Source: Acidimicrobiia bacterium (GTDB lineage Bacteria > Actinomycetota > Acidimicrobiia > Spongiisociales > ZC4RG35). Taken from it: DNA of 28,436 bases. This document shows, piece after piece, positions 158 to 16,909 of this stretch. Under the pieces are notes generated by a model. The model was not told where the DNA came from. It saw only the letters and a list, made by a program, of their open reading frames with translations, and searched no databases. The position numbers and the translations under genes were made by a program. Within the stretch, counting starts at the first letter, position 1; each line of letters begins with the position of its first letter. The stretch lies in contig DATHSX010000176.1 of the NCBI GenBank assembly GCA_035463935.1, positions 1 to 28,436 of the forward strand. Direction: 5' to 3'.

Positions 158-817
158 TCAGCTCGCGTGACCGACGGAGGTGGGTACCGGTCGCACGAAG
201 TCCCGCCGGAGGCGGTCGATCTCTTCGCGGTATTCGCAGGCGTCGACGTGGTCATTGACCAAGCCCATGGCCTCCATGAACGAGTACACCGTGGTTGGCC
301 CCACAAAGGACCAGGCCCGGCGCTTCAGGTCTTTGCTCATGGCAGCCGCCTGCGGGGGTGGCGGCAGCGCGATCAGGGTGTCCCAATCGAGCCGGTCCGG
401 ACGGGACCGTTCATCAGGCTCAAATGACCAGGCGTAGGCCCCCAGGCTGCCGAACTCGTCGATCAGGTCGAGACACCGGCGGGCGTTGTTGATAGTCGCC
501 TCGACCTTCGCCCGGTTCCTGACGATGCCCCTGTCGCTCATGAGCCGCTCAACGCTGCGAGCGTTGAAGCGGGCGACCTTCTCGATATCAAACGATGCAA
601 AGGCTCGGCGGAAGTTCTCCCTTTTGCGCAGGATGGTGAGCCAACTGAGCCCCGCCTGAAAGCCCTCCAGGCTCAACTTCTCGAAGAGGACCAGGTCGTC
701 GGCGATCGGCCGACCCCACTCGGTGTCGTGATACCGCCGGTAGAGCGCGTCATCCGAACCCCAAGGGCACCGGGCGATGCCATCGTCACCGAACGCCACA
801 CCGCCGCCGGGGACCAT
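158..817 (-). CDS. tag: DNA-3-methyladenine glycosylase I (Tag family)
   Basis: Typical Tag motifs: RCPW, YHDTEWG, LFEKLSLEGFQAGLSWLTIL, GIVRNRAKV, FVGPTTVYSFMEAMGLVNDH (Zn ligands C/H...H/C). ATG at 817. Confidence 0.93.
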   Translation of the reverse strand: MVPGGGVAFGDDGIARCPWGSDDALYRRYHDTEWGRPIADDLVLFEKLSLEGFQAGLSWLTILRKRENFRRAFASFDIEKVARFNARSVERLMSDRGIVRNRAKVEATINNARRCLDLIDEFGSLGAYAWSFEPDERSRPDRLDWDTLIALPPPPQAAAMSKDLKRRAWSFVGPTTVYSFMEAMGLVNDHVDACEYREEIDRLRRDFVRPVPTSVGHAS

Positions 818-1596
818 CGAGCCAGGTTAGACGCCAGCCCCCAACCGCCCGGGCGAGGGTTGAGTGGATCGGTGGCGTTGGCCGCTTGCAGCGTGTAGCG
901 CCTCAGGTTGGCGACGTCACCCTCGGAAAGACGGTCACAAACCCAGTCCCAGTGCAGAGACACCCAGTCGCCCGGCCGAAGGCCGTGGACAAATCCGCGT
1001 CCGTTGAGCGCGACCGTTGCTTCCTCGGTACGCTCGACACCGGGGCGCACGACCCGACCATCGAATTCCAGGGCGCGACTGCGGACCAGGGCCGTTGTCC
1101 CGTTGGCGTGAACCACCCGGCCCCAGCGGATACGGCATCGATCGAGGATCGTCAGCGGCTCGGGTCCCTCATGTCCTGCCCGCAACAGGCCCGCCCACGG
1201 GTACACCGCAAAGACGTGGAAGTTGTGGTGGGGGAGGCCACCGGCCAGGGCGGCACTTCCCACATTGGACCAAAGCCTTCCCGCCCTCCGCTGGAATCCC
1301 TCGGAGAGAAATCCGGTCAACCGGACGGGATCGACCGCCTCCAGCAGGGGATTGCCGACCCAATAGGCGCGGACCACCTTCTCGGCGAGCGGGTCCGATA
1401 CGCGGTTGGCCTCGGCGATGAGACGCAGATAAGGAAACGCACCCTCGAACCGCTGCGCCAGGTCGACCAGGCCGCGATCGGCAAGCCCGGTGCTGCCGTA
1501 CTCGAGGAGGGCTCCCGAATCGGAGGGGCCGCAGTACCCGAGTTCGTTGGGCGGATAGGCGTAGCGGGCAAAGACGAGCGCGCCTGCATTGCTCAT
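673..1596 (-). CDS. DUF6390-type protein (hydrogenase-cluster associated); C-terminal part resembles HypC
   Basis: ATG at 1596 overlaps the EamA stop (ATGA). N-terminus FARYAYPPNELGYCGP, YWVGNPLL, PHHNFHVF, DRCRIRWG and GDWVSLHWDWVC match my recollection of DUF6390. The ORF-track extension to 2286 is a shadow of the EamA gene. The 3' end is uncertain because it overlaps tag by 145 bp. Confidence 0.75.
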   Translation of the reverse strand: MSNAGALVFARYAYPPNELGYCGPSDSGALLEYGSTGLADRGLVDLAQRFEGAFPYLRLIAEANRVSDPLAEKVVRAYWVGNPLLEAVDPVRLTGFLSEGFQRRAGRLWSNVGSAALAGGLPHHNFHVFAVYPWAGLLRAGHEGPEPLTILDRCRIRWGRVVHANGTTALVRSRALEFDGRVVRPGVERTEEATVALNGRGFVHGLRPGDWVSLHWDWVCDRLSEGDVANLRRYTLQAANATDPLNPRPGGWGLASNLARWSPAAVWRSVTMASPGALGVRMTRSTGGITTPSGVGRSPTTWSSSRS

Positions 1597-2534
1597 GAGA
1601 GAGCCCCCAGGCGTGACTGCCGTGCAACCCCGACCGCCACCGCGCACGTTCCAGCCAGGATCAGGGCGAGCCCCGCCCCGTTGGGAAGCACGGGCGCTCC
1701 CTGCAAGGCACCGGCCAGCCCGGCGGTTACCACGGCTCCGAATACCAGAACCGCCGTCACGTCGAGCGCCAACGCCCTGGCCAGGGCGGCGTACCACGTG
1801 CTGACAAAGGCAGCCAGGAGTCCACCGGTGAGCACCACCCAGCCCCATTGCCCGGGGGCGAGGGAGACCATGGTTCCGAGACGTCCGGTCCCCGCCACCA
1901 GCCCCAGCAACAGGACCAGGCCGAAGCCGAGACGACCGGCGCCCACCGTGGCCGATGGGAGCGAGCCGAGAAGACGCTTGGCTATGACGAACTCGATGGC
2001 CCAGAACAGGGTGGCGGCCAGGATCATCAACTCGCCCCCGCCGAACCGGAGGGTGGTCAAATCTCCGGCGAGAGCGACTTGACCCCCGACAAGCAGCAAT
2101 ACGGCTGTCACATGGAACAGAGTCAGACGCTCGCGCAGCACGGGGACGGCCAGCGCCGCTACCCACACCACCAGAGTCTTGTGGATGAAGCCGGCCTGGG
2201 TCGACGAGGCGCGGGCCAGGCCCTCGAAAAACAGTACGAAGGGCACGCTGCCGCCGATCAGGCCGAGTACCGCGAGCTGTCCCCATTGCCGGCGGGTCAG
2301 CCTGGGGGGGGCGGGCCGGCCGGATCGGCGGTGCCCGGCGACGATCACCAGCAGAAGAATCGTGGCGATGGCGTTCTTGGCCGTGGTGAAGACCGTGGCA
2401 TCGTCGAACCCTTTGACGGCATAGCCGTTGACGAACACCGAGACTCCGCTGATGGAAGCAGCCACCAAGGCGAGCACCACTCCCCAGGAACGGGAGTGCG
2501 GGATCTGCCAGCGGGCGACCTGGTAGTGGCTCAC
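1593..2534 (-). CDS. EamA/DMT superfamily transporter (about 10 TM, two repeats)
   Basis: About 10 hydrophobic segments. Motifs GGSVPFVLFFEGL, AGFIHKTLVVWV, LAVPVLRERL. GTG start overlaps the HypC stop (GTGA). Confidence 0.85.
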   Translation of the reverse strand: MSHYQVARWQIPHSRSWGVVLALVAASISGVSVFVNGYAVKGFDDATVFTTAKNAIATILLLVIVAGHRRSGRPAPPRLTRRQWGQLAVLGLIGGSVPFVLFFEGLARASSTQAGFIHKTLVVWVAALAVPVLRERLTLFHVTAVLLLVGGQVALAGDLTTLRFGGGELMILAATLFWAIEFVIAKRLLGSLPSATVGAGRLGFGLVLLLGLVAGTGRLGTMVSLAPGQWGWVVLTGGLLAAFVSTWYAALARALALDVTAVLVFGAVVTAGLAGALQGAPVLPNGAGLALILAGTCAVAVGVARQSRLGALS

Positions 2535-2770
2535 GGGACGGCTCCTTCGATGTCTGTCATCAGTTCAATGATTCGGCCTGCCTCTTGGGGGTCGATCCGT
2601 TGCACCGGTATGCCGGCGTTCAACAGAACCCAATCCCCTACCTGCGCCGGAGTGCCCTGGAAGGCAAGTACTGCGAGTGATACCCGCTGCGACCGGCCCC
2701 GCACATCCACGAAACCGGCGTTCCCGTCAGCATCGACCGCGATGACCCGGCCGGGCCGATTCATGCACAT
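2531..2770 (-). CDS. hypC: HypC/HybG/HupF family hydrogenase maturation chaperone (atypical)
   Basis: 79 aa with N-terminal MC(MNR)PGRV, VDVRG...VSL and QVGDWVLL(N)AG...RID, located in the hydrogenase operon. Confidence 0.85.
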   Translation of the reverse strand: MCMNRPGRVIAVDADGNAGFVDVRGRSQRVSLAVLAFQGTPAQVGDWVLLNAGIPVQRIDPQEAGRIIELMTDIEGAVP

Positions 2771-3231
2771 CCGCGACTCCCCTCCCCGGAGATCTCGGCC
2801 AGGATTTCTTCAGCCACGACTCTCGTCGCGGCGGCGACCTCGGGGGTAAGCCCCCCACCCGCCGCAAAAGTCGCCCCCGTGATCCCCACGACCACGAGAC
2901 GCTCCGGTAGTCGGCCCATCACCCGACCCAATTCCACCGCGTCGCCGAGGCTCAGCGAATGGGAGCTATCGCGTGCGGGACGGTCCGGCAGGGGACTATC
3001 GGTGACGTCGAACCTCTCGACCTTGCCGGGAGGACCTCCCGAACGAACGGCGTCGACCACAAAGGCGGCCTGAAATCCTGCCCAGCTTTCGAGCAGGCCA
3101 CCCGGCTCGCCGTCGTGCTCCAGCACATCGACTCCCGGCTGCGCGGCTCTGGCCACCAACCGGGCCACTTCCAGCCCGGCGGCGTCGTCTGACCGATAGG
3201 GGTTTCCTACCCCTACGACGAGGGTCTTCAT
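2761..3231 (-). CDS. Hydrogenase maturation endopeptidase (HycI/HoxW family)
   Basis: [32 protein letters not shown] motifs. Lies directly after the large subunit with an ATGA overlap. Confidence 0.93.
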
Positions 3232-4532
3232 TCGGGCACCACCTTCAGGTCAAGGAAGTGAGTGGCGCAGGAAATACAAGGGTCGTAGCTGCGGATGGCC
3301 TGCTCGCACTGGTGAGTGAGGGCATGCTGGTCTAGTTCAAGCCGGTCGGTCACGAAGTCCGCCAGATCGGCCTCGATCTGGGCCTGGTTCTGCGAGGTGG
3401 GGGGCACAATCCGGGCATCGGTGATATCACCCTGGTCATCGATCCGGTAGCGGTGGTAGAGGATGCCCCGAGGGGCCTCGGTGCAAGCATGCCCGGTGCC
3501 CGCCCGGGGTTCCACATCCACGAATGGCCGGTCTGGCGGCCGATAGCTGGCGATGATCCGCAAGGCCTGATCGCAGGCGTGCACGATTTCAACCGCCCGC
3601 ACGACGATGCTCTTGAACGGATTGCGCACGACCGGGCCGAATCCCACCCCGGCTGCGGCCTGACGCGCCAGGGGTGTCAGCTGCTCGAAGTTCAGGTTGT
3701 AGCGGGCCAGCGGCCCGGTCAAATAGGCACCCCGGCCACGGATTCGAGCGTGAAGAGCATTGGAATGCGCCACCTGCTCCTCCTCGAAGAACTGATAGAA
3801 ATCGCCTACCGCAATGTCGAGACCACGGTCCGAAACGATCCTCCCCCCCAGAAATGGATACTCGGTAGGGTGTCGAAGAGCGACGAACTCGTAGTCCTGT
3901 TCGAAGTCGGGAAAGTCGAATCCACCGACCAGCGCGACCGTGTCAAGGGCCGCCTGCCGGGCCCATTCGAGGCGATCGGCCAGTGGCTCGAGTTCGGAAC
4001 GGGTCGGGACTCGATAAAAGCCTCCCACCCGCACATTGATAGGGTGGATGGCGCGGCCCCCGATCAGGTTGAGGACGTCATTGCCGACCTTCTTGAGCTG
4101 GAGGCCCTGCTCAACGATCTGTTTGTGGTCGCGAGCCATTTCGATGGCGCTCTCGTAGCCGAGGAAGTCGGGTGCATGGAGCAGGTAGACATGAAGGGCA
4201 TGGCTCTCGATCCACTCCCCGCAATAGAGAAGATGTCTCAGCTCCCGGATGGGTCCCTCGACCGTGACGCCGCACGCATCCTCAATCGCCTGACAGGCAC
4301 TCATCTGATAGGCCACAGGGCAGATTCCGCAGATTCGAGCGGTAATGTCAGGGGGTTCGGTGTACTTCCGCCCTCGCAGGAACGCTTCGAAGAAACGCGG
4401 CGGCTCATAGATGCGGAGTTGGACCTGGGTGACCTTCCCGTCCCGGGTGCGAACGACCATGCCTCCTTCGCCTTCGACCCTGGCAAGGGTGTCCACCCTG
4501 AGGGTGCGGGCACCCGTCGCTTTGTGAGTCAC
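3228..4532 (-). CDS. Group 3b [NiFe]-hydrogenase (sulfhydrogenase-type) large/alpha subunit
   Basis: LARVEGEG N-terminus, L1 motif [11 protein letters not shown]2 motif DPCISCATH followed by a cleavable tail FLDLKVVPE. True start is GTG at 4532 overlapping the delta stop; the ORF-track start at 5042 is an extension. Confidence 0.95.
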
Positions 4533-5311
4533 GGGATTCTCTCGCTTTCCTGCCGAAAGGCCTCGGCGCCGGTGTTGAAGGTCCGATAGATCCGTCGAAG
4601 GTCGGGGGGCCCCATCCCCAGGCCCGCCAACCAGCCGGTCAGCGAGGGAGCATTGGCGGTGTCTGCCGGGCCGAAGCACCCGTAGCATCCTCGGGAGTAG
4701 GTCGGGCAGAGCGCCCCGCAGCCGTTTTGGGTGACGGGGCCCAGGCACGGGGTTCCGTGAGCGACCATCACGCAGACATTTCCCCGGCGCTTGCACTCCA
4801 CACACACGCTGTAGGTAGCAATGTTGGGCCTGCGACGAGCCAGGAAGGCGGACAGCACCTCTAGGAGTTGGTGGCGGTCGATCGGACACCCCCGCAACTC
4901 GAAGTCGACGGGAACGTGATCGGCGATGCCCGTCGAGTTGTCCAGTGTGGAGATGAACTCCGGATGGGCGTAAACCACATCGATGAACTCGCGGACATTC
5001 GCGAAGTTGCGCAACGCCTGAATGCCCCCCGATGTCGCGCACGCTCCGATCGTCACGAGCACCCGGGAACGTCCCCTTACCAGGCGGATCCTTTCCACGT
5101 CGTCTGGGGTGCTGATCGATCCCTCAACCAGCGACACGTCATAAGGGCCTCGTATCACTGCCCGGGAGGCCTCGGGGAAGTAGGCGATCTCCACCTCGTC
5201 GGCGAGCGTGAGCAACTCGTCCTCACAGTCGAGAACGGTGAGCTGACAGCCGTCGCACGAGGAGAACTTCCAGACGGCGAGCTTCGGTTTGGCCCGCCCG
5301 GACTCTGCCAT
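4529..5311 (-). CDS. Group 3b hydrogenase small/delta subunit
   Basis: [43 protein letters not shown]...RGCYGCFGP. No Tat signal. ATG at 5311 in a TGATG overlap with the gamma stop. Confidence 0.93.
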
Positions 5312-6180
5312 CACACCTCCCGAATCGACATCAGGCGTTCCACCCGCTGGTAGGGGAAAACCGGTCCGGCCATGCAAACGAAGTCCGGGCCAAACTGGCA
5401 GTGACCACAGTGACCGATGGCGCACTTCATGTTCCGTTCCATCGACACCCGCACCCGATCTCGCGGGATGCCCCGGTCCAGCAGCGCCCTGGCGGCAAAG
5501 CGGATCATCACCTCGGGCCCACAGATGAAGGCCGTCGCCTCCTCCGGTCGGAAGGCGACGGGGGGAATGAGCTCGGTGACTACCCCTACATGGCCATGCC
5601 AGTCCGGACCGGCGTGGTCGACGGTTACCTCCACCTCCATATCGAGGTGGCTCCGCCACGACCCGATCTCTCTTTGGAAGATCAAGTCCTTCGGCGATCT
5701 GGCACCAATCAGAACCGCCACCTGCCCGAATCGACTTCGCTCGGCCATGATCCGGTAGATGGCGGGGCGAAGGGGCGCCAGCCCGATACCGCCGGCGACC
5801 ACAACCAGATCGTTTCCAGCGGCGGCCTCGACCTGCCAGTCCGAGCCGAAAGGCCCGCGCACTCCGACCACGTCCCCCTCCCGCAACCCGCATAGGGCCC
5901 TGCTCACGGCTCCGACCGACCGGACGGTATGAATCAGCGGGCCTGCGGCTGGATCGCCGCTGATCGAGATCGGGACTTCACCCACGCCGAACGCGTAGAG
6001 CATGTTGAACTGGCCGGGTCGGTACGCCATCGGCGCGCCGTCGACAGGATCGAGGGCGAAGGTGTAGGTGTCGGCGGTTTCGCGCCTCTTCCAGCTCACC
6101 CGGTAGCGAAGGGGAACCATCGGCCGCCCAGGCGCCGGGACGGGTGAGAGGTGAACATCAGCCAGCACGACCGCCGCCAT
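5311..6180 (-). CDS. Group 3b hydrogenase gamma subunit (FAD/NAD(P)-binding, 2Fe-2S)
   Basis: [60 protein letters not shown] motifs. Start position approximate. Confidence 0.93.
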
Positions 6181-6631
6181 ACAGATCGATCAAGCGGAGC
6201 CGCGCCGACTCCAGCCTTTCTACGAGTATCTCCGCAAACCGCTTCATCAACTGGTAACCCAGCCGTGTGTCCTCCTCACACTTGTCCCGTAGACAGGCCC
6301 CGTCCAGAGCCACTACTCCGACTGGTTCCAGGGCGCGGGCATCGAACTGCCACCGATAAGGGGGAAACAGCCACGAGGCTCCGACGACGTCGGCTTCACC
6401 GGCAGTGTCGATCACCAGCGAGCCCCGGGCGGGCAGATGCACCTCAATGGCCACCCGGCCCCGACGAACGATGAAGAAGAGGTCGGCCGGATCCCCCTCC
6501 CGACACAGATAGTCACCCGTTTCGAAGACCATGTTCTTTCCGCATCCGGCGACCAGTTCCAGGTAACCGGGATCGAGGTCTTTGAAGAACGGATGGGTCC
6601 GAAGCAACTGGTCGATCGTTTCAAGGGACAT
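6158..6631 (-). CDS. Stand-alone cyclic-nucleotide-binding (Crp-type sensor) domain protein without an HTH
   Basis: [39 protein letters not shown]. 157 aa. AAGGAGG RBS before the ATG at 6631. Confidence 0.85.
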
Positions 6632-7757
6632 TGGCAACCTCCTTGCTGGAGCGGGATGGGGCCCGGAGGCCCTCGACCTCCTCGGTGAGATCAATGCCTA
6701 CCGGGCACCAGGTGATACACCGGCCACAACCCACACAGCCCGAAGTGCCGAACTGATCGATCCAGGTTGCGAGCTTGTGGGTGAGCCACTGCCGGTATCG
6801 CGACCTGGTGGAGGAGCGGACGTTGCCTCCGCCCAGGTATGAGAACTCGAGGCTGAAGCAAGAATCCCAGGTCCGCCACCGCTCGGCGATCGTCCCGGTG
6901 AGATCGCTGGTGTCCTCGACCGTGCTGCAAAAGCACGTGGGGCACACCATCGTGCAGTTGGCGCAGGTCAGACAGCGCCGGGCCACCTCATCCCAACGCG
7001 AGTGCTCGTAGCTGCCGTAGAAGAGGTCTTTGATCCCCCCGGTGTCCAGAGCCCTGCCCATGTGGGCCGCAGCCCATTCGATCACAGCATCCGCTCTTCT
7101 CCGATCCTCCGGCTGGTCGGGCCGCTGCGGCACCTCGGCCAGAATCTCCCCGCCCCGGGGCGAGCCGATCTCCACCAGGAATTCGTGCCGGTTGTCGCTC
7201 ATCAGTTCGGTGAGGGAAAGGTCGAATCCCGGCCCGGCCCGGGGTCCGGTTCCCATGGAGACGCAAAAACAGGTGCCGGCCGGGCTCCCGCAATTGACGG
7301 CGATCACAAATGCCCGCTGGCGGCTGCTGGAGTAGGTGGGGTCCGCGAACGACCCACCGGCAAAGACCAGGTCCTGAATCGCGATGGCCGCCAGCTCACA
7401 TCCCCTTACTCCAAGGAAGGCATACGGCCCCGACGCTTCTGGTCCGGCCTCGATCCCGAATCCTTCCTCTGTGCGACGACCCCGCCACAGCAGCGTTCGA
7501 GAAGGGAACAGGTACTTCTTCCACGATTGGGGACCGACGCCGTACCCGAACAGGGCCTGGTCACTCCTGGGCCGGAGCCGGTAGGTCCCCCCGTCCTGCT
7601 CATCGGTCCATCCTTTGGGGAGATCGACCACCGAGGTGACCTGGTCGTAGACGATTGCGCCCTCGCGAACCGTCGGGCCGACGACCAGATAGCCGCGTTG
7701 GCGGAGCACGCCGATGAGGGTGTCCAGCCCGGATCGGTCGATTACGGCGGTGCGCAT
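6621..7757 (-). CDS. Group 3b hydrogenase beta subunit (4Fe-4S dicluster, AsrA/HydB-like)
   Basis: GVRGCEL, VNC...[45 protein letters not shown]. Confidence 0.93.
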
Positions 7758-9801: not shown

Positions 9802-12660
9802 TTAGCCGGGCAGGGCGTAAACCGGGCGAGCGGGCTTCAGCGGGCGCAGCAACCAGTAGGGCCTTCTGGTGCCGTCGGGGGAGATGCGGTCGGCGGCCCT
9901 CGTCAAGTCCAGCCAGCGCAGGTAAGCCTCTCTGGCGCGGGCGGTGTCGACGACGACGTCGCCATATTGGTCGCCTGGCTCGGCCTTGCGCACCCGCACC
10001 GCCTGGTGCCAGCAGTGCTGGCCGGAAATAGGATCGGGCTGCACCGGAAAGGTCAGGTTCTGGTGGACCCCTGACTCCGACCACCAGATCCGTTGGGTGT
10101 CGGGATCGGTCGACTCATAGGGCTCGATCCCCTGCTTGCGGCTCAGGCTCCACTCGGACCCGGAGTGGCCGAGGGCGACCGTGGCCATCGCCTGTCGCTG
10201 CCCTTGATCCTGGAGTTTCCAGCGTCCCATGTGGTGGGAGCACGCCACCACCCCCGGTCGGATGCCCTCGGTTACCCAGGCCTTGACCACGTAGTGACCG
10301 ATCTCGGTCACCACCCGCACCAGGTCGCCGGTGGAAAGGCCGAGCCGGGCCGCGTCGGTCGTGTGAATCCAGAGCGGGTTGGTGTGGGCAATCTCATCTA
10401 GCCATTTGGAATTGGCCGACCGAGTGTGAATCTGCACCGGTAGTCGAAAGGTGGAGATGAGCGGCATCTGTCCCTCCTCGAGGTTCGAGGGGTGAATGTG
10501 GCTGCGGATGTAGCCGGGAAGCGAGTGCTCGGGCCATCCCCAGTTGGTCAGGGTGGACGAGTAGAACTCCAGCTTGCCGCTCGGAGTCGGAAAGCCACGG
10601 AGGACCTTTCCGTCGATCCGCACCCCCACCGGGCGCCTCCCCTGGTCATCGGGGTCGGGGCTCGACAACGGCACAACATTGGCTTGTTCGGCGGCCGGAC
10701 CCCGGCTGTAGACCCGTCCAAACCGATCCTCGGCCACATCCACCAACTCCGCCTCCGGCACCTCCTGTTCGTGCCGGGGGCCGATACCTCTGGCTATCTC
10801 GAAGGCGCCGTAACGACGCATGTACTCGAGCGGGCTCAGACCTTCGGCACCGGCGTGTTCGGGAAGGCCCGGAACCGAGTGCTCAAACATCCAGCCGTAG
10901 TACTCGTCCACTGTCAGCTTGCGACCGGGGTCTTGCCTCGACTCGTGGTATCGCCTGATGCCGAGGCTCCCGTCGGGATCGATCCTCCAGGACAACTCGA
11001 TCCAGAATTCGTTCTCCTCCCACACCTGGCCCGGATTGGACTCTCTGGTGTCGGTGATCGCCATCCCCAACCGGCTGGCCGCCGCCCGCGCCACGGGCTG
11101 ACGGAAACCCACCCACTGCCCGTCGTACTGCTCGTAGGAGTGCACGTCGTGCCTTTCGGGCGAGTGACCCATGGGGAGGATGTAGTCGGCGAAAAAGGCC
11201 GTCTCCGACCAGGTAGGGGTGAGGGCAACATGAAGACCGATCTTGTCCTCATCGGTGAGCATCTCGATCCAGGAGAAGCCGTCCGGGTTGGTCCACACCG
11301 GGTTGTAGACCCGAGTGAAATAGACCTCGATGTTGCCCCGTCCCTCGTTCACGAACTGCGGCAGCAGAAAGGACAACTCGTGCATCGCCAGCGGATACTC
11401 GAGGGGCCAGGTGAGTTCGTTCCATACCGGCGGATGGGGAGGGCTGTGGATGGGTCGGGGCACGAACTTGTTCCAGGCGTTGGGGTACGTGCCGCCGGGG
11501 GTCGCCACCGCCCCCAGGAGGGCGTTGATCAGGAACAAGCTGCGCGATACCTGCCAGCCCCCCAGATTCCCGGCCGCGGCTGAGCGCCAGTTGTGGGACG
11601 AGAAACGGGTTCCGGCGCCGGCCACCAACCCGGCGACTTCCCGGAGGGTCGAGACCGCAACCCCCGACTCGGCCGAGGCAAACTCGAAGGTGTAGTCGCG
11701 GTAGAGCTCACTGAGAACCTCCTCGAAACTTTCGAAGGTGGAGCCCCGCTCGGGATGTTCTGCTGCCAGGTACGACTCCCAGTTCCACCAGCGCCGGACG
11801 AATTCGCGGTTGTAGGCCCCGGTCTGGATGACGTGATTGGCGATGGCCAGATTGATCGCGGCCTCTGATCCCGGATAGGGCGAAAGCCAGTGGTCGGCAT
11901 GGGTGGCGGTATTGGACAACCTCGTGTCGAGGACAATCAGCTTCGCTCCCCGGGCCTTGGCTTCAGTGATCCGCTGGGCGTGGGGGTTGAAATAGTGCCC
12001 GGCCTCGAGGTGGGCCGAGATCAGGTATATCACCTCGGCGTTGGCGTGGTCCGGGCTGGGGCGGTCGATCCCCATCCACAACTGGTACCCCACCCGGGCC
12101 GCCGAGGAGCAGACATTGGTGTGCGAGTTGTGGCCATCGACACCCCAAGAGGCCAGGACCCGCTCGGTGAAACCGTCCTCCCCGGGCCTGCCCACGTGGT
12201 ACATGACCTGGTTCGGTCTCCCCTCGACGATGGCGCTTCGCACCCGGGCAGCGACTTCGGTGAGGGCCTCTTCCCAGGAGACCGGTACCCATCGCCCTTC
12301 GCCCCGGCGACCGGCCCGTTTGAGTGGCTGCAGTATCCGGTCGGGATCGGTGATCTGGTTGAGGGTGGCCGGGCCTTTGGCGCAGTTGCGACCGCGTGAG
12401 CCGGGATGCTCCGGATTTCCCTCCAGCTTGCGGATCTGCAGGGTTTCGGGATCCACATAGGCCAGCAGCCCACAGGCGGACTCGCAGTTGAAGCAGGTGG
12501 TAGGGACCAGCATCGACCGGCGTTCGACCCGCTCCGGCCAGGCCCGGGAGTCCAATTCGGTCCACTCGTCCCATCGTTCCTTCGGCGGGTAAGAGGCCAG
12601 GTGGATGCCGCTGGGGCCCTGGTAGAAGGTCTCGTCAGGACGAGCGGGGTCGTCTGTCAT
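9802..12660 (-). CDS. Mo/W-bisPGD (DMSO reductase family) catalytic subunit, PsrA/PhsA-like, no Tat signal
   Basis: 4Fe-4S motif TCFNCESAC...NCAKG, RILQPLKR, HNSHTNVCSS (candidate Cys ligand), HFNPH, FADYILP, TPSGKLEF, HTRSAN, C-terminal QAVRVRKA. 952 aa from the ATG at 12660 (ATGA overlap); the ORF-track start at 13455 is an extension. Confidence 0.92.
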   Translation of the reverse strand: MTDDPARPDETFYQGPSGIHLASYPPKERWDEWTELDSRAWPERVERRSMLVPTTCFNCESACGLLAYVDPETLQIRKLEGNPEHPGSRGRNCAKGPATLNQITDPDRILQPLKRAGRRGEGRWVPVSWEEALTEVAARVRSAIVEGRPNQVMYHVGRPGEDGFTERVLASWGVDGHNSHTNVCSSAARVGYQLWMGIDRPSPDHANAEVIYLISAHLEAGHYFNPHAQRITEAKARGAKLIVLDTRLSNTATHADHWLSPYPGSEAAINLAIANHVIQTGAYNREFVRRWWNWESYLAAEHPERGSTFESFEEVLSELYRDYTFEFASAESGVAVSTLREVAGLVAGAGTRFSSHNWRSAAAGNLGGWQVSRSLFLINALLGAVATPGGTYPNAWNKFVPRPIHSPPHPPVWNELTWPLEYPLAMHELSFLLPQFVNEGRGNIEVYFTRVYNPVWTNPDGFSWIEMLTDEDKIGLHVALTPTWSETAFFADYILPMGHSPERHDVHSYEQYDGQWVGFRQPVARAAASRLGMAITDTRESNPGQVWEENEFWIELSWRIDPDGSLGIRRYHESRQDPGRKLTVDEYYGWMFEHSVPGLPEHAGAEGLSPLEYMRRYGAFEIARGIGPRHEQEVPEAELVDVAEDRFGRVYSRGPAAEQANVVPLSSPDPDDQGRRPVGVRIDGKVLRGFPTPSGKLEFYSSTLTNWGWPEHSLPGYIRSHIHPSNLEEGQMPLISTFRLPVQIHTRSANSKWLDEIAHTNPLWIHTTDAARLGLSTGDLVRVVTEIGHYVVKAWVTEGIRPGVVACSHHMGRWKLQDQGQRQAMATVALGHSGSEWSLSRKQGIEPYESTDPDTQRIWWSESGVHQNLTFPVQPDPISGQHCWHQAVRVRKAEPGDQYGDVVVDTARAREAYLRWLDLTRAADRISPDGTRRPYWLLRPLKPARPVYALPG

Positions 12661-14213
12661 GCCAGTGGTACGGCCTGCGCCGATTGGATGTATGCGTGCT
12701 CGTAAGCCAGCAGCCCGGCCAGAGCCGGTAGCGCCGCCCAGGCCCCGGCCCAGGGGCCGGCCAGCCCGAAGGCCGAGAGGATGACACCCGGCCAGAAGGA
12801 CGAGCTGTAGCGGCCGGTGGTCATCTCCCACACCGCCAGATGGGCGTGGGCGGTCCCGTGGGGCAGGGTGACCTCGCCCCAAACCAGGAGGAGGTGGACC
12901 AGCGAAGCCAGGGCCAGCGTCCAGCCCAGGGCCGGACCGGCCTCGTTGCCGGTGAGGGCGTCGGCCACGACCAGGGTGGCGGCGCCGGCCAGCACCGCCT
13001 GCATCGCCATGTGGGGCGGAAGCAGCGGACTCTGCCAGAGATCCCTGGCCTTGGATTGGGCGAACAGATAGGCGGTGTACACCGCCGACATCAGGGCAAG
13101 AGGGATGCCGGGCACCGCCGCCAGTTGGCGCAAGGTCTCCGATCCGGTCCAGGCGGAGAGCAGGTGCGCGACCAGCACGCCACCGTAGCCGAGGATGAAC
13201 ATCGCCCCCTTCACCAGCCAGCTCCTCCACTGCGGTCGGGTGAATAGATAGAAGAAGCGCTCGGGATGATCGAGGTCCCAGACCAGGACCGCCCCCGTGA
13301 CACCGAGGAAACCCAAGCCGACCAGGGGGGTGACCCAGACCACCAGGTCGCTGGTCCAATCGAGTAACCCGGTGAGCACCAGCAGCAGCCCAACCAGATA
13401 GACACCGGCACCAATTGCCTTGGCCCAGGTGTAGAGGCCGACCCGCCAGTCCCACGGCGCCTTATGGGGAATGTCATAAGAGAGAAGGGCCGCCGCCGAG
13501 GAGTTGGAGCGGCCCCCGGGATGGCCGGACCGAATCCCCGCACCCTGCTCGCTCCACATGTAAAGGTCGCCGCCAGGACGGGTAGCTGCAATGGGATCGA
13601 GAGTCGCCTGATGGGCTCCCTGGTAGAAGAGCTTGGGATAGGTCTCCTTCTCGGGACGCCTCACCGTCACCGGCTGGCGTTGCACGATCCCTGCCACTCG
13701 CGAGAACGGATCGGACAGATCGCCCACCAGAATCGCCTCGGTGGGGCATACCACCACGCAGGCTGGTTCCAGCCCGATGTCGAGCCGGTGGGCGCAGAAG
13801 TTGCACTTCTCGGCGGAATGATCCTCCGGGTTGATGAAGATGGCATCGTACGGACAGGCCGCGATGCACGCCTTGCAGCCGATGCAGATCCGCTTGTCGA
13901 AATCGACGATCCCGTCTGCGCGCCGATACATCGCGGCTGTGGGGCAGGCGGCCACACAGGGCGGGTTGGCACACTGATTGCACCTCGTCACCTGGAAAGC
14001 CCGACGGGCCTGGGGGAAGTAACCAACGTCGACCGACTTGACGTAGGTGCGGGTCACCCCGACCGGAACCTGGTTCTCCGACTTACAGGCGGTGGTGCAG
14101 GCGTGACACCCGATGCAGCGGGTCTGATCGATGACCTTCACCCATTCCGGCGGTCTGAGCGGGGCAAACGCCGCCGGGGCCGCTTCGAATTGGGAGGTGC
14201 CAGCGACCTCCAT
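12657..14213 (-). CDS. Fusion of a four-cluster ferredoxin (PsrB/NrfC/DmsB-like) to an NrfD/PsrC-type membrane anchor
   Basis: N-terminal half: CIGCHACTTAC, CNQCANPPCVAACP, CIGCKACIAACPY, KCNFC...PACVVVCP. C-terminal half: about 8 TM helices with WDLDHPERF and SWLVKG (NrfD motifs). Confidence 0.9.
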   Translation of the reverse strand: MEVAGTSQFEAAPAAFAPLRPPEWVKVIDQTRCIGCHACTTACKSENQVPVGVTRTYVKSVDVGYFPQARRAFQVTRCNQCANPPCVAACPTAAMYRRADGIVDFDKRICIGCKACIAACPYDAIFINPEDHSAEKCNFCAHRLDIGLEPACVVVCPTEAILVGDLSDPFSRVAGIVQRQPVTVRRPEKETYPKLFYQGAHQATLDPIAATRPGGDLYMWSEQGAGIRSGHPGGRSNSSAAALLSYDIPHKAPWDWRVGLYTWAKAIGAGVYLVGLLLVLTGLLDWTSDLVVWVTPLVGLGFLGVTGAVLVWDLDHPERFFYLFTRPQWRSWLVKGAMFILGYGGVLVAHLLSAWTGSETLRQLAAVPGIPLALMSAVYTAYLFAQSKARDLWQSPLLPPHMAMQAVLAGAATLVVADALTGNEAGPALGWTLALASLVHLLLVWGEVTLPHGTAHAHLAVWEMTTGRYSSSFWPGVILSAFGLAGPWAGAWAALPALAGLLAYEHAYIQSAQAVPLA

Positions 14214-14216
14214 CAA

Positions 14217-14441
14217 CTAGACCTTCTGAATGCGGAAGTGGAACTCGCCATCCTGTTCAAACTGCTCCTTCAGCACGTGGCCCATGTCCGCGGTCCACGC
14301 GGGTACGTCGGTGCACGACCCGCGATCGGTGGAAATCAACTCCACCATAAGTCCCGAAGGGGCGAGGTTGATGGCTTGGCTCAACTTGATGATTGGCATG
14401 GGGCATTGCAGGCCCCGGGCGTCGACGATTACGTCCGCCAT
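14217..14441 (-). CDS. TusA/SirA-family sulfur carrier
   Basis: VDARGLQCPMPII (CPxP motif), STDRGSCTDVPAW. 74 aa, GAGGAGG RBS. Confidence 0.92.
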   Translation of the reverse strand: MADVIVDARGLQCPMPIIKLSQAINLAPSGLMVELISTDRGSCTDVPAWTADMGHVLKEQFEQDGEFHFRIQKV

Positions 14442-14452
14442 GGGCAACCTCC

Positions 14453-14989
14453 TCAGATGAACAAGTTGATCGACGACTGCTTCATCAGGCTGATGGCGGC
14501 CCCCGCCCCGGCCGGCTTGTCAAGGCCATCGATCATATCTTGTGCCTCCATTCCCATCAGGGTCATGGTCATCTGGCAGGGCCAGAGCTTGACGCCCATC
14601 TGCTGGGCGAGTTCGAGCAGCTCCTGAACCGAGGCGACCTTGTGTTTGTCGGCCAGGTCTTTCATCATCCGGGGCCCCATCCCCGCGAAGTTCAGTTTGG
14701 AGAGGTTTAGGTGCTCGGTAGTGCCGCGGTTGAAGATCGAGAGCAGCTTCTGGCGCCAGTCGTCTCCAGTGATGCCCGCGTCGGGCTTCTTGAGGATGCC
14801 GAGACCCCAGAAGGTGAAGAACACGGTCACCTCCATCCCGTATGCCGCCCCGGTGGTGGCCAGGATCAACACCGGCCAGGCCTTGTCGAGGTCACCAGAA
14901 GCGGCGATGATCACCATCTTCTCCCGCTCGGGCTGAGTCTCTTCGACTGCACTCTCGTCCGGGACTGCTGCGAGATTCGTTCTTGTCAC
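14453..14989 (-). CDS. DsrE/DsrF-like (DsrE2/YrkE-type) sulfur-transfer protein
   Basis: SGDLDKAW..LILA..AA..GMEVTVFFTFWGL, LNFAGMG..MM, VKLWPCQMTM.LMG, terminal LFI. AGGAGG RBS. Confidence 0.9.
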   Translation of the reverse strand: MTRTNLAAVPDESAVEETQPEREKMVIIAASGDLDKAWPVLILATTGAAYGMEVTVFFTFWGLGILKKPDAGITGDDWRQKLLSIFNRGTTEHLNLSKLNFAGMGPRMMKDLADKHKVASVQELLELAQQMGVKLWPCQMTMTLMGMEAQDMIDGLDKPAGAGAAISLMKQSSINLFI

Positions 14990-15015
14990 CTGTCCTCCTA
15001 CCGTCGACCGCAGGC

Positions 15016-15041
15016 ACTATATACAGATATTCGTATATACT
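15016..15041. promoter_or_regulatory. AT-rich palindrome TATATAC-N8-GTATATA (15018-15039) overlapping divergent -10 hexamers
   Basis: 7-bp perfect arms in an AT-rich patch within GC-rich DNA. Minus-strand TATAGT (15021-15016) lies about 27 nt before the dsrE start; plus-strand TATACT at 15036-15041. Confidence 0.6.
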
Positions 15042-15188
15042 AATCTCTTCGTCAAAGTGGGCGCAGGTGCCCTCGATGCGATCGATAGAGCAGCGACCGT
15101 CCGGCCCCATCCCTGGCTGCGGCCAGGACTGGGGCGGCGGCTGATCGTGAGCTGGGCGCTCTCGGCGCGACCGGAGGAAGGAGGGGCC

Positions 15189-16544
15189 GTGGAGGTAAGA
15201 CTGCTTCGAACCCCCGGGCTCGGTGACAACAGCTATGTGCTGGCCGAGGACGGGCTGGGCATCGTGATTGATCCCCAGCGCGACATCGACCGGTTCATGA
15301 CCGAGGCCGAGGCCCTGGAGGTGGAGGTCAGGTATGTCCTCGAGACCCACCTCCACAACGACTACCTTTCGGGAGGTCGTGAGCTAGCCCGCCTCACCGG
15401 GGCCGACCTGGTCCTCCCAGCCGGCGCCGGGGCGGCCTTTGCTTACGTTCCCGCCTTCCACCTCGAAGAGTTCGGCGAGGGACGGCTCCGCATCCGACCC
15501 CTGCATACTCCGGGCCACACCCCCGAACACACCTCGTATCTCGTGAGCATCGACGGCGTCCCCATTGCCGTCTTTTCCGGTGGCAGCCTGCTCGTGGGTG
15601 CGGCGGGAAGGAGCGACCTGCTGGGTCCCGACCGAGCGACCCAGTTGGCGCGACTTCAATACGGATCTGTGCGTCGTCTGGCGGATCTCCCCGATCGGGT
15701 TTCCCTTTATCCGACCCATGGGGCAGGCTCGTTTTGCAGCGCCGGACTGGCCGGCCCCGCGACCTCCACCATCGGAGACGAAAAACGGACCAGCCCGGTG
15801 CTCCGGCACCTCGACGCCGACCAATTCGTCGCCGCCCAGCTGGCAAGCCTCGATCCCTATCCCCGGTACTACGCCCATATGGGGCCAGCCAACCTCTTCG
15901 GTCCGACCCCCATGCCCTCCGGGACCGCTCCAAGCCTGAGCGCAGATGACGTCGAGTCGCTGGTAGGCCGGGTCGAGATAGTCGATGCCCGGCCCAAGCA
16001 GGCGTACGCCGACGGGCATCTCCCGAAGGCCTGGGGCATCGAGCTCAACGAAGACTTCGTCACCTGGGTGGGCTGGCTGCTCCCCTACGACGCGCCTCTG
16101 GTGTTGGTGGTGGACAACGATCAAGACGTCGGCCAGGCAGTCACCGCACTCGCCCGAATCGGATTCGACCATGTGAAAGGGGTCTTCTCCGGTATGGACG
16201 AATGGCTCGCGTCGGGTCGGCCAGTCGTCTCCCACACCACGATCACGGCCCGTGGCTTCCTGGAGGGCGCCGATCCCGACCCCCAGGTACTGGACGTCCG
16301 CTCAGCCCGCGAATGGAGTGACGGCCATCTCGAAGGATCCGTGCACTGCTACCTGCCCGACCTCCTGGATGCAACTCCGATCGAACTCGACCCGGGACGT
16401 CCGGTCTACGTGGGCTGCACCACCGGGCACCGGGCCTCTACTGCTGCCGGCCTCCTTGCCGGTAGGGGCTACCGGCCCGTCGTTATGGTGGGTGCCAGCC
16501 TCCTGGGAGTCCTCATGCTTCGCCAGCAGCGAGCCACTGTGTGA
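15189..16544 (+). CDS. MBL-fold hydrolase plus tandem rhodanese domains (persulfide dioxygenase/CstB/YrkH-like)
   Basis: GDNSY, IDPQRD, ETHLHNDYLSG, HTPGHTPEH, FSGGSLLVGAAGRSDL, YPTHGAGSFC. A Cys-less rhodanese domain is followed by one with GCTTGHRAS (active Cys). GTG at 15189 after a GGAGG RBS. Confidence 0.9.
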   Translation: MEVRLLRTPGLGDNSYVLAEDGLGIVIDPQRDIDRFMTEAEALEVEVRYVLETHLHNDYLSGGRELARLTGADLVLPAGAGAAFAYVPAFHLEEFGEGRLRIRPLHTPGHTPEHTSYLVSIDGVPIAVFSGGSLLVGAAGRSDLLGPDRATQLARLQYGSVRRLADLPDRVSLYPTHGAGSFCSAGLAGPATSTIGDEKRTSPVLRHLDADQFVAAQLASLDPYPRYYAHMGPANLFGPTPMPSGTAPSLSADDVESLVGRVEIVDARPKQAYADGHLPKAWGIELNEDFVTWVGWLLPYDAPLVLVVDNDQDVGQAVTALARIGFDHVKGVFSGMDEWLASGRPVVSHTTITARGFLEGADPDPQVLDVRSAREWSDGHLEGSVHCYLPDLLDATPIELDPGRPVYVGCTTGHRASTAAGLLAGRGYRPVVMVGASLLGVLMLRQQRATV

Positions 16545-16909
16545 TGCTTCGATCGCTCTTTCCTTCCGACCCGCGCCGGACCGGGCATGAGCCCGACTAT
16601 CGCTTCTCGTTCGCCAATGAGCGGACGTTCCTTGCCTGGATTCGGACCTCGCTGGCCTTGACCGCCGGCGGGCTGGGAGTAGTGCAGTTGCTGCCCCCGT
16701 TCGCCGGCCGGGACCTGCTCGGAGGCCTGCTTATCGTGCTCGGGTTCTTGACGGCGGCCACCTCCTACCGGAGGTGGGCATCCAATGAACGGGCCTTACG
16801 ATCCGACGCGCCTCTCCCGGCTTCGCGGCTGCCACGAATCCTGGCAGCCGGCGTGGCGCTGGTCGGGCTGGCAGCAGCCTTCTTCCTCCTGATCGACCGC
16901 ATCCGATGA
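16544..16909 (+). CDS. DUF202/YidH family membrane protein
   Basis: EPDYRFSFANERTFLAWIRTSLAL signature and 3 TM helices. Start overlaps the MBL stop (TGATG). Confidence 0.88.
   Translation: MLRSLFPSDPRRTGHEPDYRFSFANERTFLAWIRTSLALTAGGLGVVQLLPPFAGRDLLGGLLIVLGFLTAATSYRRWASNERALRSDAPLPASRLPRILAAGVALVGLAAAFFLLIDRIR

Follow-up and report, generated by a model that had tools for sequence, protein, structure and literature searches.

A [NiFe]-hydrogenase operon of an Acidimicrobiia bacterium (contig DATHSX010000176.1, assembly GCA_035463935.1) carries, behind its large-subunit gene, a cassette encoding a maturation protease, the chaperone HypC, an EamA-type permease and a protein of the unstudied DUF6390 family, and this EamA-DUF6390 pair occurs almost exclusively in genomes where the maturation factors HypD and HypF are not found. 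The window referred to below is the whole stretch of this contig that was analysed, 28,436 nt long. All [NiFe]-hydrogenases studied need HypC, HypD, HypE and HypF for the Fe(CN)2CO half of the active site, a requirement treated as universal (PMC11879354). Bacteria bearing the module probably build or obtain their metal centre by an undescribed route. We lean, by a small measure, towards reading the cassette as a HypC-partnered, transporter-coupled module for cofactor handling, in which DUF6390 would bind iron or an iron-ligand unit and the trio HypC-EamA-DUF6390 would stand in for HypD, HypE and HypF (HypDEF).

The cassette closes a single nine-gene operon (673-7757), with all genes on the minus strand and each start overlapping or abutting the preceding stop. 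According to Pfam and NCBIfam matches, the order is 4Fe-4S beta subunit, cyclic-nucleotide-binding protein, FAD/NAD(P)-binding gamma subunit, small subunit, [NiFe] large subunit, HycI-type endopeptidase, HypC, EamA/DMT (drug/metabolite transporter) permease and DUF6390. The same operon recurs in four related loci (L005-L008) and in most of the 80 species loci described below. The nine genes are translationally coupled. A first-pass annotation, made from the window's letters alone, had described the four genes after the large subunit as joined by ATGA- or GTGA-type overlaps, and this stands for the protease, EamA and DUF6390 junctions; the hypC/protease junction is a 10-nt overlap (ATGTGCATGA) and not a 4-nt ATGA.

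The first cassette gene, for a HycI/HoxW-type endopeptidase (2761-3231; PF01750 E 8.6e-11), shares an ATGA with the large-subunit stop and scores 112 bits against TIGR00072 (cut-off 47), and the large subunit retains a cleavable 9-residue tail after its C-terminal His. HypC (2531-2770; 79 aa) matches PF01455 with 57.4 bits (E 1.6e-15, cut-off 28.5) and begins with Met-Cys; the usually conserved His of HypC is Asn in the window and His in most relatives. The EamA/DMT permease, with two repeats (1593-2534; PF00892 E 3.4e-25), overlaps hypC by GTGA. DUF6390 follows with an ATGA overlap, and its open reading frame (ORF, 673-1596) matches PF19927 over residues 2-242 (289.7 bits, cut-off 25; E 2.3e-86). 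The family match is limited to residues 1-250 (core at 847-1596); the homologues, 250-270 aa long, lack the final ~55 residues (673-846) in the alignment. This run-on overlaps the tag gene (DNA-3-methyladenine glycosylase, minus strand, 158-817; PF03352 E 3e-68) by 145 nt in another frame, and it looks like the result of a lost stop codon rather than a functional tail.

In two related group 3b operons a short HypA-like ORF separates hycI from hypC (G036:C3:409564-409761, that is, L016 at ~16565-16762, and G026:C18:13338-13565). These ORFs cover only the first ~66-73 model positions, and the second, with one internal TAG, matches weakly (E 6e-4). In the window, hycI and hypC leave no space for a gene of this kind.

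Among the remaining ORFs of the window, no HypA-, HypB-, HypD-, HypE-, HypF- or NiCoT-like product was found, just as the first-pass annotation had noticed for these 28 kb. It had also allowed for the core hyp genes being located elsewhere in the genome, and on this point the genomic evidence goes the other way. A search of the whole assembly (2.67 Mb in 533 contigs, 86.75% complete) returned no HypD, HypA, HypB or NiCoT, with the HypB result saying little since the HypB model has no match even in HypD-positive relatives; HypE and HypF gave only paralogue-level matches, to AIR-synthase-like, acylphosphatase and Kae1-like genes. The HypD, HypE and HypF of the canonical HypABCDEF system were thus not found in this assembly, and the search there gave no NiFe large subunit other than the window's.

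The pattern extends to relatives. Within 41 genomes of the same order, the window's own included, DUF6390 is present in 10 and HypD in 5 with no overlap between them, and all 10 DUF6390-positive genomes have a large subunit of the window type; in five of these ten, 95-99% complete, HypE and HypF were not found. A wider sample of the phylum comprised 401 genomes, 400 of them drawn at a completeness of at least 90% and the last being the window's own. Both tallies take in unpublished genomes (G038, one of the 10 DUF6390-positive relatives, and G088, G159 and G428 in the phylum sample), and none of our conclusions hinges on these. Here 235 genomes are NiFe-positive, of which 214 have HypD, and DUF6390 is found in 19, every one NiFe-positive. 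The first-pass annotation had named occurrence of DUF6390 and this EamA clade mostly without hydrogenases as a finding that would count against its reading; in our profiling DUF6390 was seen only in NiFe-positive genomes, so its reading is not refuted on this count. DUF6390 occurs in 8 of 21 NiFe-positive genomes lacking HypD versus 11 of 214 that have it (odds ratio 11, with p-values overstated because kin are not independent). The HypD-negative genomes include a single-contig genome (G107), a 99%-complete genome in 9 contigs (G036) and genomes of 6 and 20 contigs, and in five HypD-negative DUF6390 genomes of the phylum sample HypE and HypF were not found.

When genomes are chosen by the EamA-DUF6390 pair itself, HypD is present in 3 of 65: none of the 10 from the relatives and phylum samples, none of 5 isolates and 3 of 50 additional ones. 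Of 49 additional module-bearing genomes searched for the HypF_C domain, 3 carry it, the very three that have HypD, with the HypF_C gene adjoining hypD. As both turn up in exactly the same three genomes, the searches for HypD and HypF are sensitive, and the two genes travel together. Tested with full-length models, HypE and HypF exceeded the cut-off in none of 16 module- or DUF6390-bearing genomes. Six cultured strains carry the module, namely Pedococcus cremeus CGMCC 1.6963, P. bigeumensis JCM 16023, Nocardioides panacihumi JCM 15309, N. taihuensis CGMCC 4.7318, Demequina soli NBRC 109394 and Nostocoides sp. F2B08; neither HypE nor HypF turned up in any of the six, nor HypD in the five that were searched for it. 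Position follows the same divide: EamA adjoins DUF6390 in 10 of 16 HypD-negative versus 0 of 11 HypD-positive DUF6390 genomes examined.

The permease is bound to this setting as well. The window's EamA, scanned against prokaryotic species represented by one genome each, gave a clade of 80 species loci (46-59% identity), in 79 of which DUF6390 lies directly downstream. A group 3b operon is present at nearly all of the 80, no HypD, HypE or HypF is found within 8 kb at any of them, and a HypC ORF starting with Met-Cys (or Val-Cys) stands just upstream of EamA in 69, a count that leaves out five doubtful ORFs. The EamA clade is hence hydrogenase-specific, and the earlier suggestion that EamA and DUF6390 are accessory factors linked to the hydrogenase is supported by these counts. 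Judged by record titles, the arrangement recurs in Actinomycetes, Acidimicrobiia, Thermoleophilia and Nitriliruptoria. A hydropathy scan of the window's EamA gave 13 overlapping windows, compatible with ~10 hydrophobic segments (the helix count being approximate). The HKT motif to which the first-pass annotation had drawn attention is not a motif of the clade: among 81 relatives K119 is conserved at 95% or more, T120 at 85-95% and H118 below 85%. The clade has no conserved Cys or His cluster, H141 being the only conserved residue of this kind.

The enzyme itself looks functional. The large subunit (3228-4532; PF00374), whose GTG start overlaps the small-subunit stop, contains RICGIC, EAPRG...H, PPTSQN and DPCISCATH followed by the 9-residue C-terminal extension. 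Its best solved relatives are the alpha subunits of Pyrococcus/Thermococcus sulfhydrogenase I (9nez, 5yxy; E 1e-67), on which ground we assign the enzyme, by its sequence, to the group 3b [NiFe]-hydrogenases of the sulfhydrogenase type. The best NCBIfam matches of the four subunits (ShyA, ShyD, ShyB and gamma) all fall below the equivalog cut-offs, which makes it a distant member. In 69 module-linked large subunits, searched for EAPRG...H as well, RxCGxC and PPT(S/A)QN occur in all 69 and DPCxxCxxH with a short tail (mostly 9 residues) in 68. EAPRG...H and PPT(S/A)QN are the motifs that we take to line the diatomic ligands in solved hydrogenases. Given that the metal-site motifs are conserved in 68-69 of the 69, the module-linked enzymes look intact and decay to a pseudo-enzyme is unlikely. 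The sole large-subunit ORF in which DPCxxCxxH was not recognised by pattern (L055, chromosome OY970315.1) has a frame that seems to continue into the protease gene, as a frameshift or a fusion would produce.

DUF6390 is a sizeable family, with 1257 clusters at 50% identity matching at E 1e-3 or better and a typical length of 250-270 residues. It is mentioned in no paper of the searchable literature, which leaves out most subscription journals, and within the same literature no paper was found that combines hydrogenase, HypC and EamA. An AlphaFold2 model built from 88 sequences (mean predicted local distance difference test, pLDDT, 95.1; predicted template modelling score, pTM, 0.92) consists of a helical domain (1-154), a beta-barrel (157-223) and a closing helix (225-241). 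In a Foldseek search of the PDB with this model, the top six matches are all HypC (2z1c, 3vyr-3vyu; probability 1.0, E 5e-3). VIA-align, run over 48,161 representative chains, places Thermococcus kodakarensis HypC first (2z1c_A, residues 2-72 aligned to 152-242 of the model; Z 5.9, root-mean-square deviation 1.8 A, 71/71 residues) and Escherichia coli HypC second. Hhalign aligns DUF6390 154-234 with HypC 2-70 (E 3.4e-4, probability 38%), pairing C154 with the essential Cys2 of HypC and H215 with the conserved HypC His position. Each score is modest, as the domain is small, and the three methods agree that the rear domain is, in the model, a HypC-like barrel plus helix.

DUF6390 has the HypC fold and is in part HypC-like, but it is not a member of the HypC/HupF family, because its Cys is internal (residue 154) and PF01455 gives no match at E 0.01. 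There is likewise no match to PF01924 (HypD), and no HypD among the Foldseek and VIA-align matches of the model. For the helical domain, Foldseek returned no PDB match, VIA-align a best Z below 5 and the Atlas feature search no usable match, which does not prove a new fold; a PDB sequence search with the DUF6390 profile gave chance-level matches only (E 0.67). Six residues (C22, H124, H127, C154, H215 and C220) are invariant or nearly so, and all of them except H127 are kept in every context examined, fusions included.

Two clusters from the Atlas structure search deserve a mention beside this fold. One, of 414 members, mostly Aenigmatarchaeota, contains proteins of ~180 residues that align over 159 residues (template modelling score, TM, 0.72 by the shorter protein), and a quarter of it matches PF01455; judged from the models, it is possibly a short form of DUF6390 in DPANN archaea. 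The other has 50 members, with Candidatus Omnitrophota as the most frequent source, and fuses a HypC domain with a radical S-adenosylmethionine (SAM)/BATS enzyme (BioB/HydG-like). Only the HypC part accounts for its weak match (TM 0.2) to the DUF6390 model, and these proteins could represent another unconventional route to hydrogenase ligands.

Gene neighbourhoods tie DUF6390 to HypC more firmly than to any other partner. In most loci hypC immediately precedes DUF6390 or the EamA-DUF6390 pair. DUF6390 is also found fused to PadR, XRE or MarR DNA-binding domains, each fusion directly beside hypC, and a natural EamA-DUF6390 fusion (P0218) has a minimal NiFe hydrogenase and an Nramp gene for neighbours. 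Where HypD is present, DUF6390 comes after hypD (G212, G267) or hypC (G109, G134, G240, G365, G409). The complete genome G107 has hypC-EamA-DUF6390 beside another hydrogenase type, 28% identical to the window's large subunit. Because adjacency to hypC persists across operons, fusions and HypD-positive clusters, the invariant core is DUF6390 plus hypC, with a transporter as the usual third partner. The transporter varies: an ATP-binding cassette (ABC) importer composed of SBP_bac_11, a double-length permease and a TOBE ATPase recurs next to DUF6390 (G057, G008, G156, G223, G354), a FecCD/Peripla_BP_2 importer lies near it in G049, NikA-class SBP_bac_5 importers surround an XRE-DUF6390 fusion, and Nramp and VIT1 genes are also found nearby.

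Complex prediction for DUF6390 and HypC gave a score of 0.52 (runs 0.59, 0.52 and 0.50), the best of 3 controls reaching 0.00; the runs share at least 77% of contacts, with a partner pLDDT of at least 80. In our calibration 58 of the 80 solved complexes reach the mark and, among 110 mismatched pairs, 2 do so; scores up to 0.60 comprise 7 of the 80 solved complexes together with both passing mismatched pairs. The modelled pairing thereby receives weak support.

Two further proteins were noticed in DUF6390 neighbourhoods. In G212 (L012:13928-14647, minus strand), a canonical cluster arranged as hypF...hypE-hypC-hypD-DUF6390, with a SIS-domain neighbour, includes a 239-residue protein whose last 50 residues match PF01455 (E 2e-7), by its sequence another HypC-derived accessory protein. 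In G049 (L011:12210-13670, minus strand), which has DUF6390 but no HypD, HypE or HypF, a 486-residue protein without Pfam match lies between hypC and DUF6084 in the cluster of a different hydrogenase type.

Comparison with described systems places DUF6390 close to known maturation factors and apart from each of them. Residues ~152-242 have the barrel-plus-helix fold of HypC, HybG and HupF (PF01455; 2z1c, 2ot2, 3vyr-3vyu) with matching Cys and His, and the protein is encoded next to a true hypC. It differs from them in its internal Cys, in an extra helical domain of 150 residues without clear structural match, in further conserved Cys and His residues, in being transporter-coupled and in its fusions to DNA-binding domains. 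With the HypC-HypD scaffold of the HypABCDEF system it shares the character of a larger, Cys-bearing partner beside HypC at the usual gene position of hypD; unlike HypD, it has no PF01924 match or recognised [4Fe-4S] motif, lacks HypE and HypF as cyanide-delivery partners and coexists with HypD itself in some genomes. As for the enzyme, sulfhydrogenase I of Pyrococcus/Thermococcus (9nez, 5yxy) is the best named match of all four window subunits. These archaea mature that enzyme with a full Hyp set and, to our knowledge, no EamA, DUF6390 or cyclic-nucleotide-binding protein belongs to its operon as described. The closest operon is the group 3b 'synton-4' of Frankia, composed of two diaphorase-subunit genes with a cyclic-nucleotide-binding gene between them, hyhS, hyhL and a protease gene; as described, it ends at the protease, has no Hyp genes and was never the sole hydrogenase cluster of a genome, so that Hyp proteins are assumed to act in trans (PMC11879354). 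The structural part of the window's operon is the same, the inserted cyclic-nucleotide-binding gene and the protease included, whereas the window appends hypC-EamA-DUF6390 and HypDEF was not found in its genome.

Taken together, the four genes after the large subunit would act as a cassette that matures a group 3b [NiFe]-hydrogenase, a cytosolic and NAD(P)-linked enzyme, without HypD, HypE or HypF. By family membership, HypC would carry the iron unit to the apo large subunit, and HycI, after metal insertion, would cut off the 9 residues that follow the C-terminal His. DUF6390, a helical domain, perhaps new, joined to a HypC-type barrel, would bind iron or an iron-ligand unit, as it keeps the Cys and His of HypC and has the near-invariant C22, H124 and C220 in addition. 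It would work with HypC as scaffold or donor, the place taken by HypD in the canonical system. The EamA permease would be its dedicated membrane partner, moving a small polar molecule that the step needs or possibly releases. HypC-EamA-DUF6390 would in this way replace the HypDEF branch, either by importing a ready-made Fe(CN)2CO precursor or by undescribed chemistry. A more specific form, salvage instead of synthesis of Fe(CN)2CO, has the permease (or an ABC importer in other lineages) import a pre-formed iron-ligand precursor or a cyanide- or thiocyanate-type source, which DUF6390 receives at the membrane and passes to HypC; stated so narrowly, we consider it unlikely.

Several observations weigh against this replacement of HypDEF. 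Nothing in the cassette resembles a cyanide- or CO-making enzyme and no HydG-like enzyme was found, so the source of the diatomic ligands is left unexplained. A HydG-type source of CN and CO was rejected for the five HypDEF-less genomes searched with the radical SAM model TIGR03955, where the one match (E 5e-4) is far below the cut-off. DUF6390 is present in 11 HypD-positive genomes as well, sometimes inside hypFCDE clusters, and therefore is not simply a substitute for HypD. The PadR, MarR and XRE fusions suit a ligand sensor better than a scaffold, and the other neighbours of DUF6390 belong to transporter classes that include metal importers (SBP_bac_11 ABC, FecCD, SBP_bac_5, Nramp and VIT1). 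The Cys that is internal in DUF6390 is N-terminal in HypC, with a free amine, and the prediction of a complex with HypC is weak. Most of the genomes are metagenome-assembled genomes, and related ones are not independent samples. Gene architecture, fold, conserved residues, co-occurrence and fusions are shown by the data above; from them we infer that DUF6390 binds metal and partners HypC, what EamA transports and in which direction, and that the trio replaces HypDEF.

Part of this evidence would sit more comfortably with metal supply and sensing, the main competing account, which we rate as possible yet doubtful. DUF6390 would then be a cytoplasmic receiver or sensor of nickel or iron, fed by a dedicated importer and passing metal to HypC or the large subunit, with no role in CN or CO, and the absence of HypDEF would be a separate matter. 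The range of adjoining importers (SBP_bac_11/TOBE ABC, FecCD/Peripla_BP_2, NikA-class SBP_bac_5, Nramp, VIT1) and the fusions beside hypC, typical of ligand-sensing regulators, fit such a role better than they fit a replacement of HypDEF; the three Cys and two His conserved in the DUF6390 sequence would suit a metal site, HypA, HypB and NiCoT were not found in the window's assembly, and the family is present in HypD-positive genomes too. What metal supply leaves unexplained is the near-confinement of the EamA-DUF6390 pair to genomes lacking HypD and HypF and the adjacency of EamA that divides HypD-negative from HypD-positive genomes. We are also not aware of any nickel or iron importer among DMT/EamA proteins, the clade has H141 and no conserved Cys/His cluster, and the HypC-like domain points to the iron-ligand branch and not to nickel.

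Another way of doing without new ligand chemistry is to suppose that the large subunit has no classical NiFe(CN)2CO centre and instead holds a simpler metal site or serves another function, so that HypDEF is not needed and the cassette only inserts metal. None of the module-linked group 3b enzymes is characterised, which gives this idea some room, and yet we find it quite improbable: the four metal-binding Cys and PPT(S/A)QN are conserved in 68-69 of 69 species, EAPRG...H is present, and HypC (a known carrier of Fe(CN)2CO) is retained together with the Ni-dependent endopeptidase and its cleavable tail. Most ordinary of all would be canonical hypABDEF genes on unassembled parts of a fragmented genome, with EamA and DUF6390 as unrelated passengers. 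Since hyp genes usually cluster, a single missing contig could hide them in an assembly of this completeness and contig number, and the Frankia group 3b operon, itself without Hyp genes, borrows them from other hydrogenase clusters (PMC11879354). This we find hardly credible, the hiding of Hyp genes by incompleteness being largely refuted by near-complete genomes and isolates: the same absence is seen in the single-contig genome, in the 99%-complete genome of 9 contigs and in six isolates (five of them tested for HypD), HypD and HypF are each missing from ~94% of the further module-bearing genomes by searches whose sensitivity is attested by their co-occurrence in the same three, no second NiFe large subunit was found in the window's assembly, and EamA-DUF6390 adjacency is kept in 79 of 80 species.

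Dozens of species in several actinobacterial classes thus keep an apparently intact enzyme, HypC and the protease and lack HypD and HypF, and a permease and an unstudied, HypC-derived protein accompany the enzyme in them. If the enzyme is active, either there is a novel way of making or acquiring its ligands or its centre departs from the textbook one, and each outcome would change the view of hydrogenase maturation, with a bearing on heterologous hydrogenase production with fewer helper proteins. The matter lends itself to direct testing, since all six strains with the module are cultured or deposited in collections. New here are the tally for the EamA-DUF6390 pair (HypD in 3 of 65, HypF concordant), the isolates, the ABC-importer context, the adjacency of the regulator fusions to hypC, the negative HydG search and the weakly supported complex prediction.

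The remaining operon genes, all upstream of the large subunit, encode the partner subunits and one possible regulator. The small (delta) subunit (4529-5311; PF01058 E 2.6e-23, NF040831 ShyD E 2e-48) has an ATG that overlaps the gamma stop by 1 nt. The gamma subunit, binding FAD/NAD(P) and a 2Fe-2S cluster (5311-6180; PF00175 and PF10418, PRK08345 E 2e-54), is preceded by the gene of a stand-alone cyclic-nucleotide-binding protein (6158-6694; PF00027 E 2.4e-13), and the operon opens with the ShyB/HydB-like beta subunit, a 4Fe-4S dicluster protein (6621-7757; PF17179 Fer4_22 E 5e-33, NF040829 ShyB E 3e-39). The cyclic-nucleotide-binding protein has no DNA-binding domain and may serve the hydrogenase as a regulatory subunit; most of the 80 related operons have its gene at this position. 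The study of Frankia calls the corresponding protein a small regulator (PMC11879354).

The window DNA is high-GC. Outside the operon it also carries genes for a beta-eliminating lyase, a methyltransferase, LigD, Ku, a DUF72 protein, a sugar kinase, a short-chain dehydrogenase and an ABC ATPase. A redox cluster of sulfur type lies at 9802-16544 and comprises a molybdopterin oxidoreductase of 1217 residues, an NrfC/NrfD-type partner whose ORF matches both Fer4_11 (4Fe-4S) and the NrfD membrane domain, a DsrE-like protein and a metallo-beta-lactamase with rhodanese domains; its gene content suggests metabolism of the polysulfide, thiosulfate or tetrathionate type near the hydrogenase.

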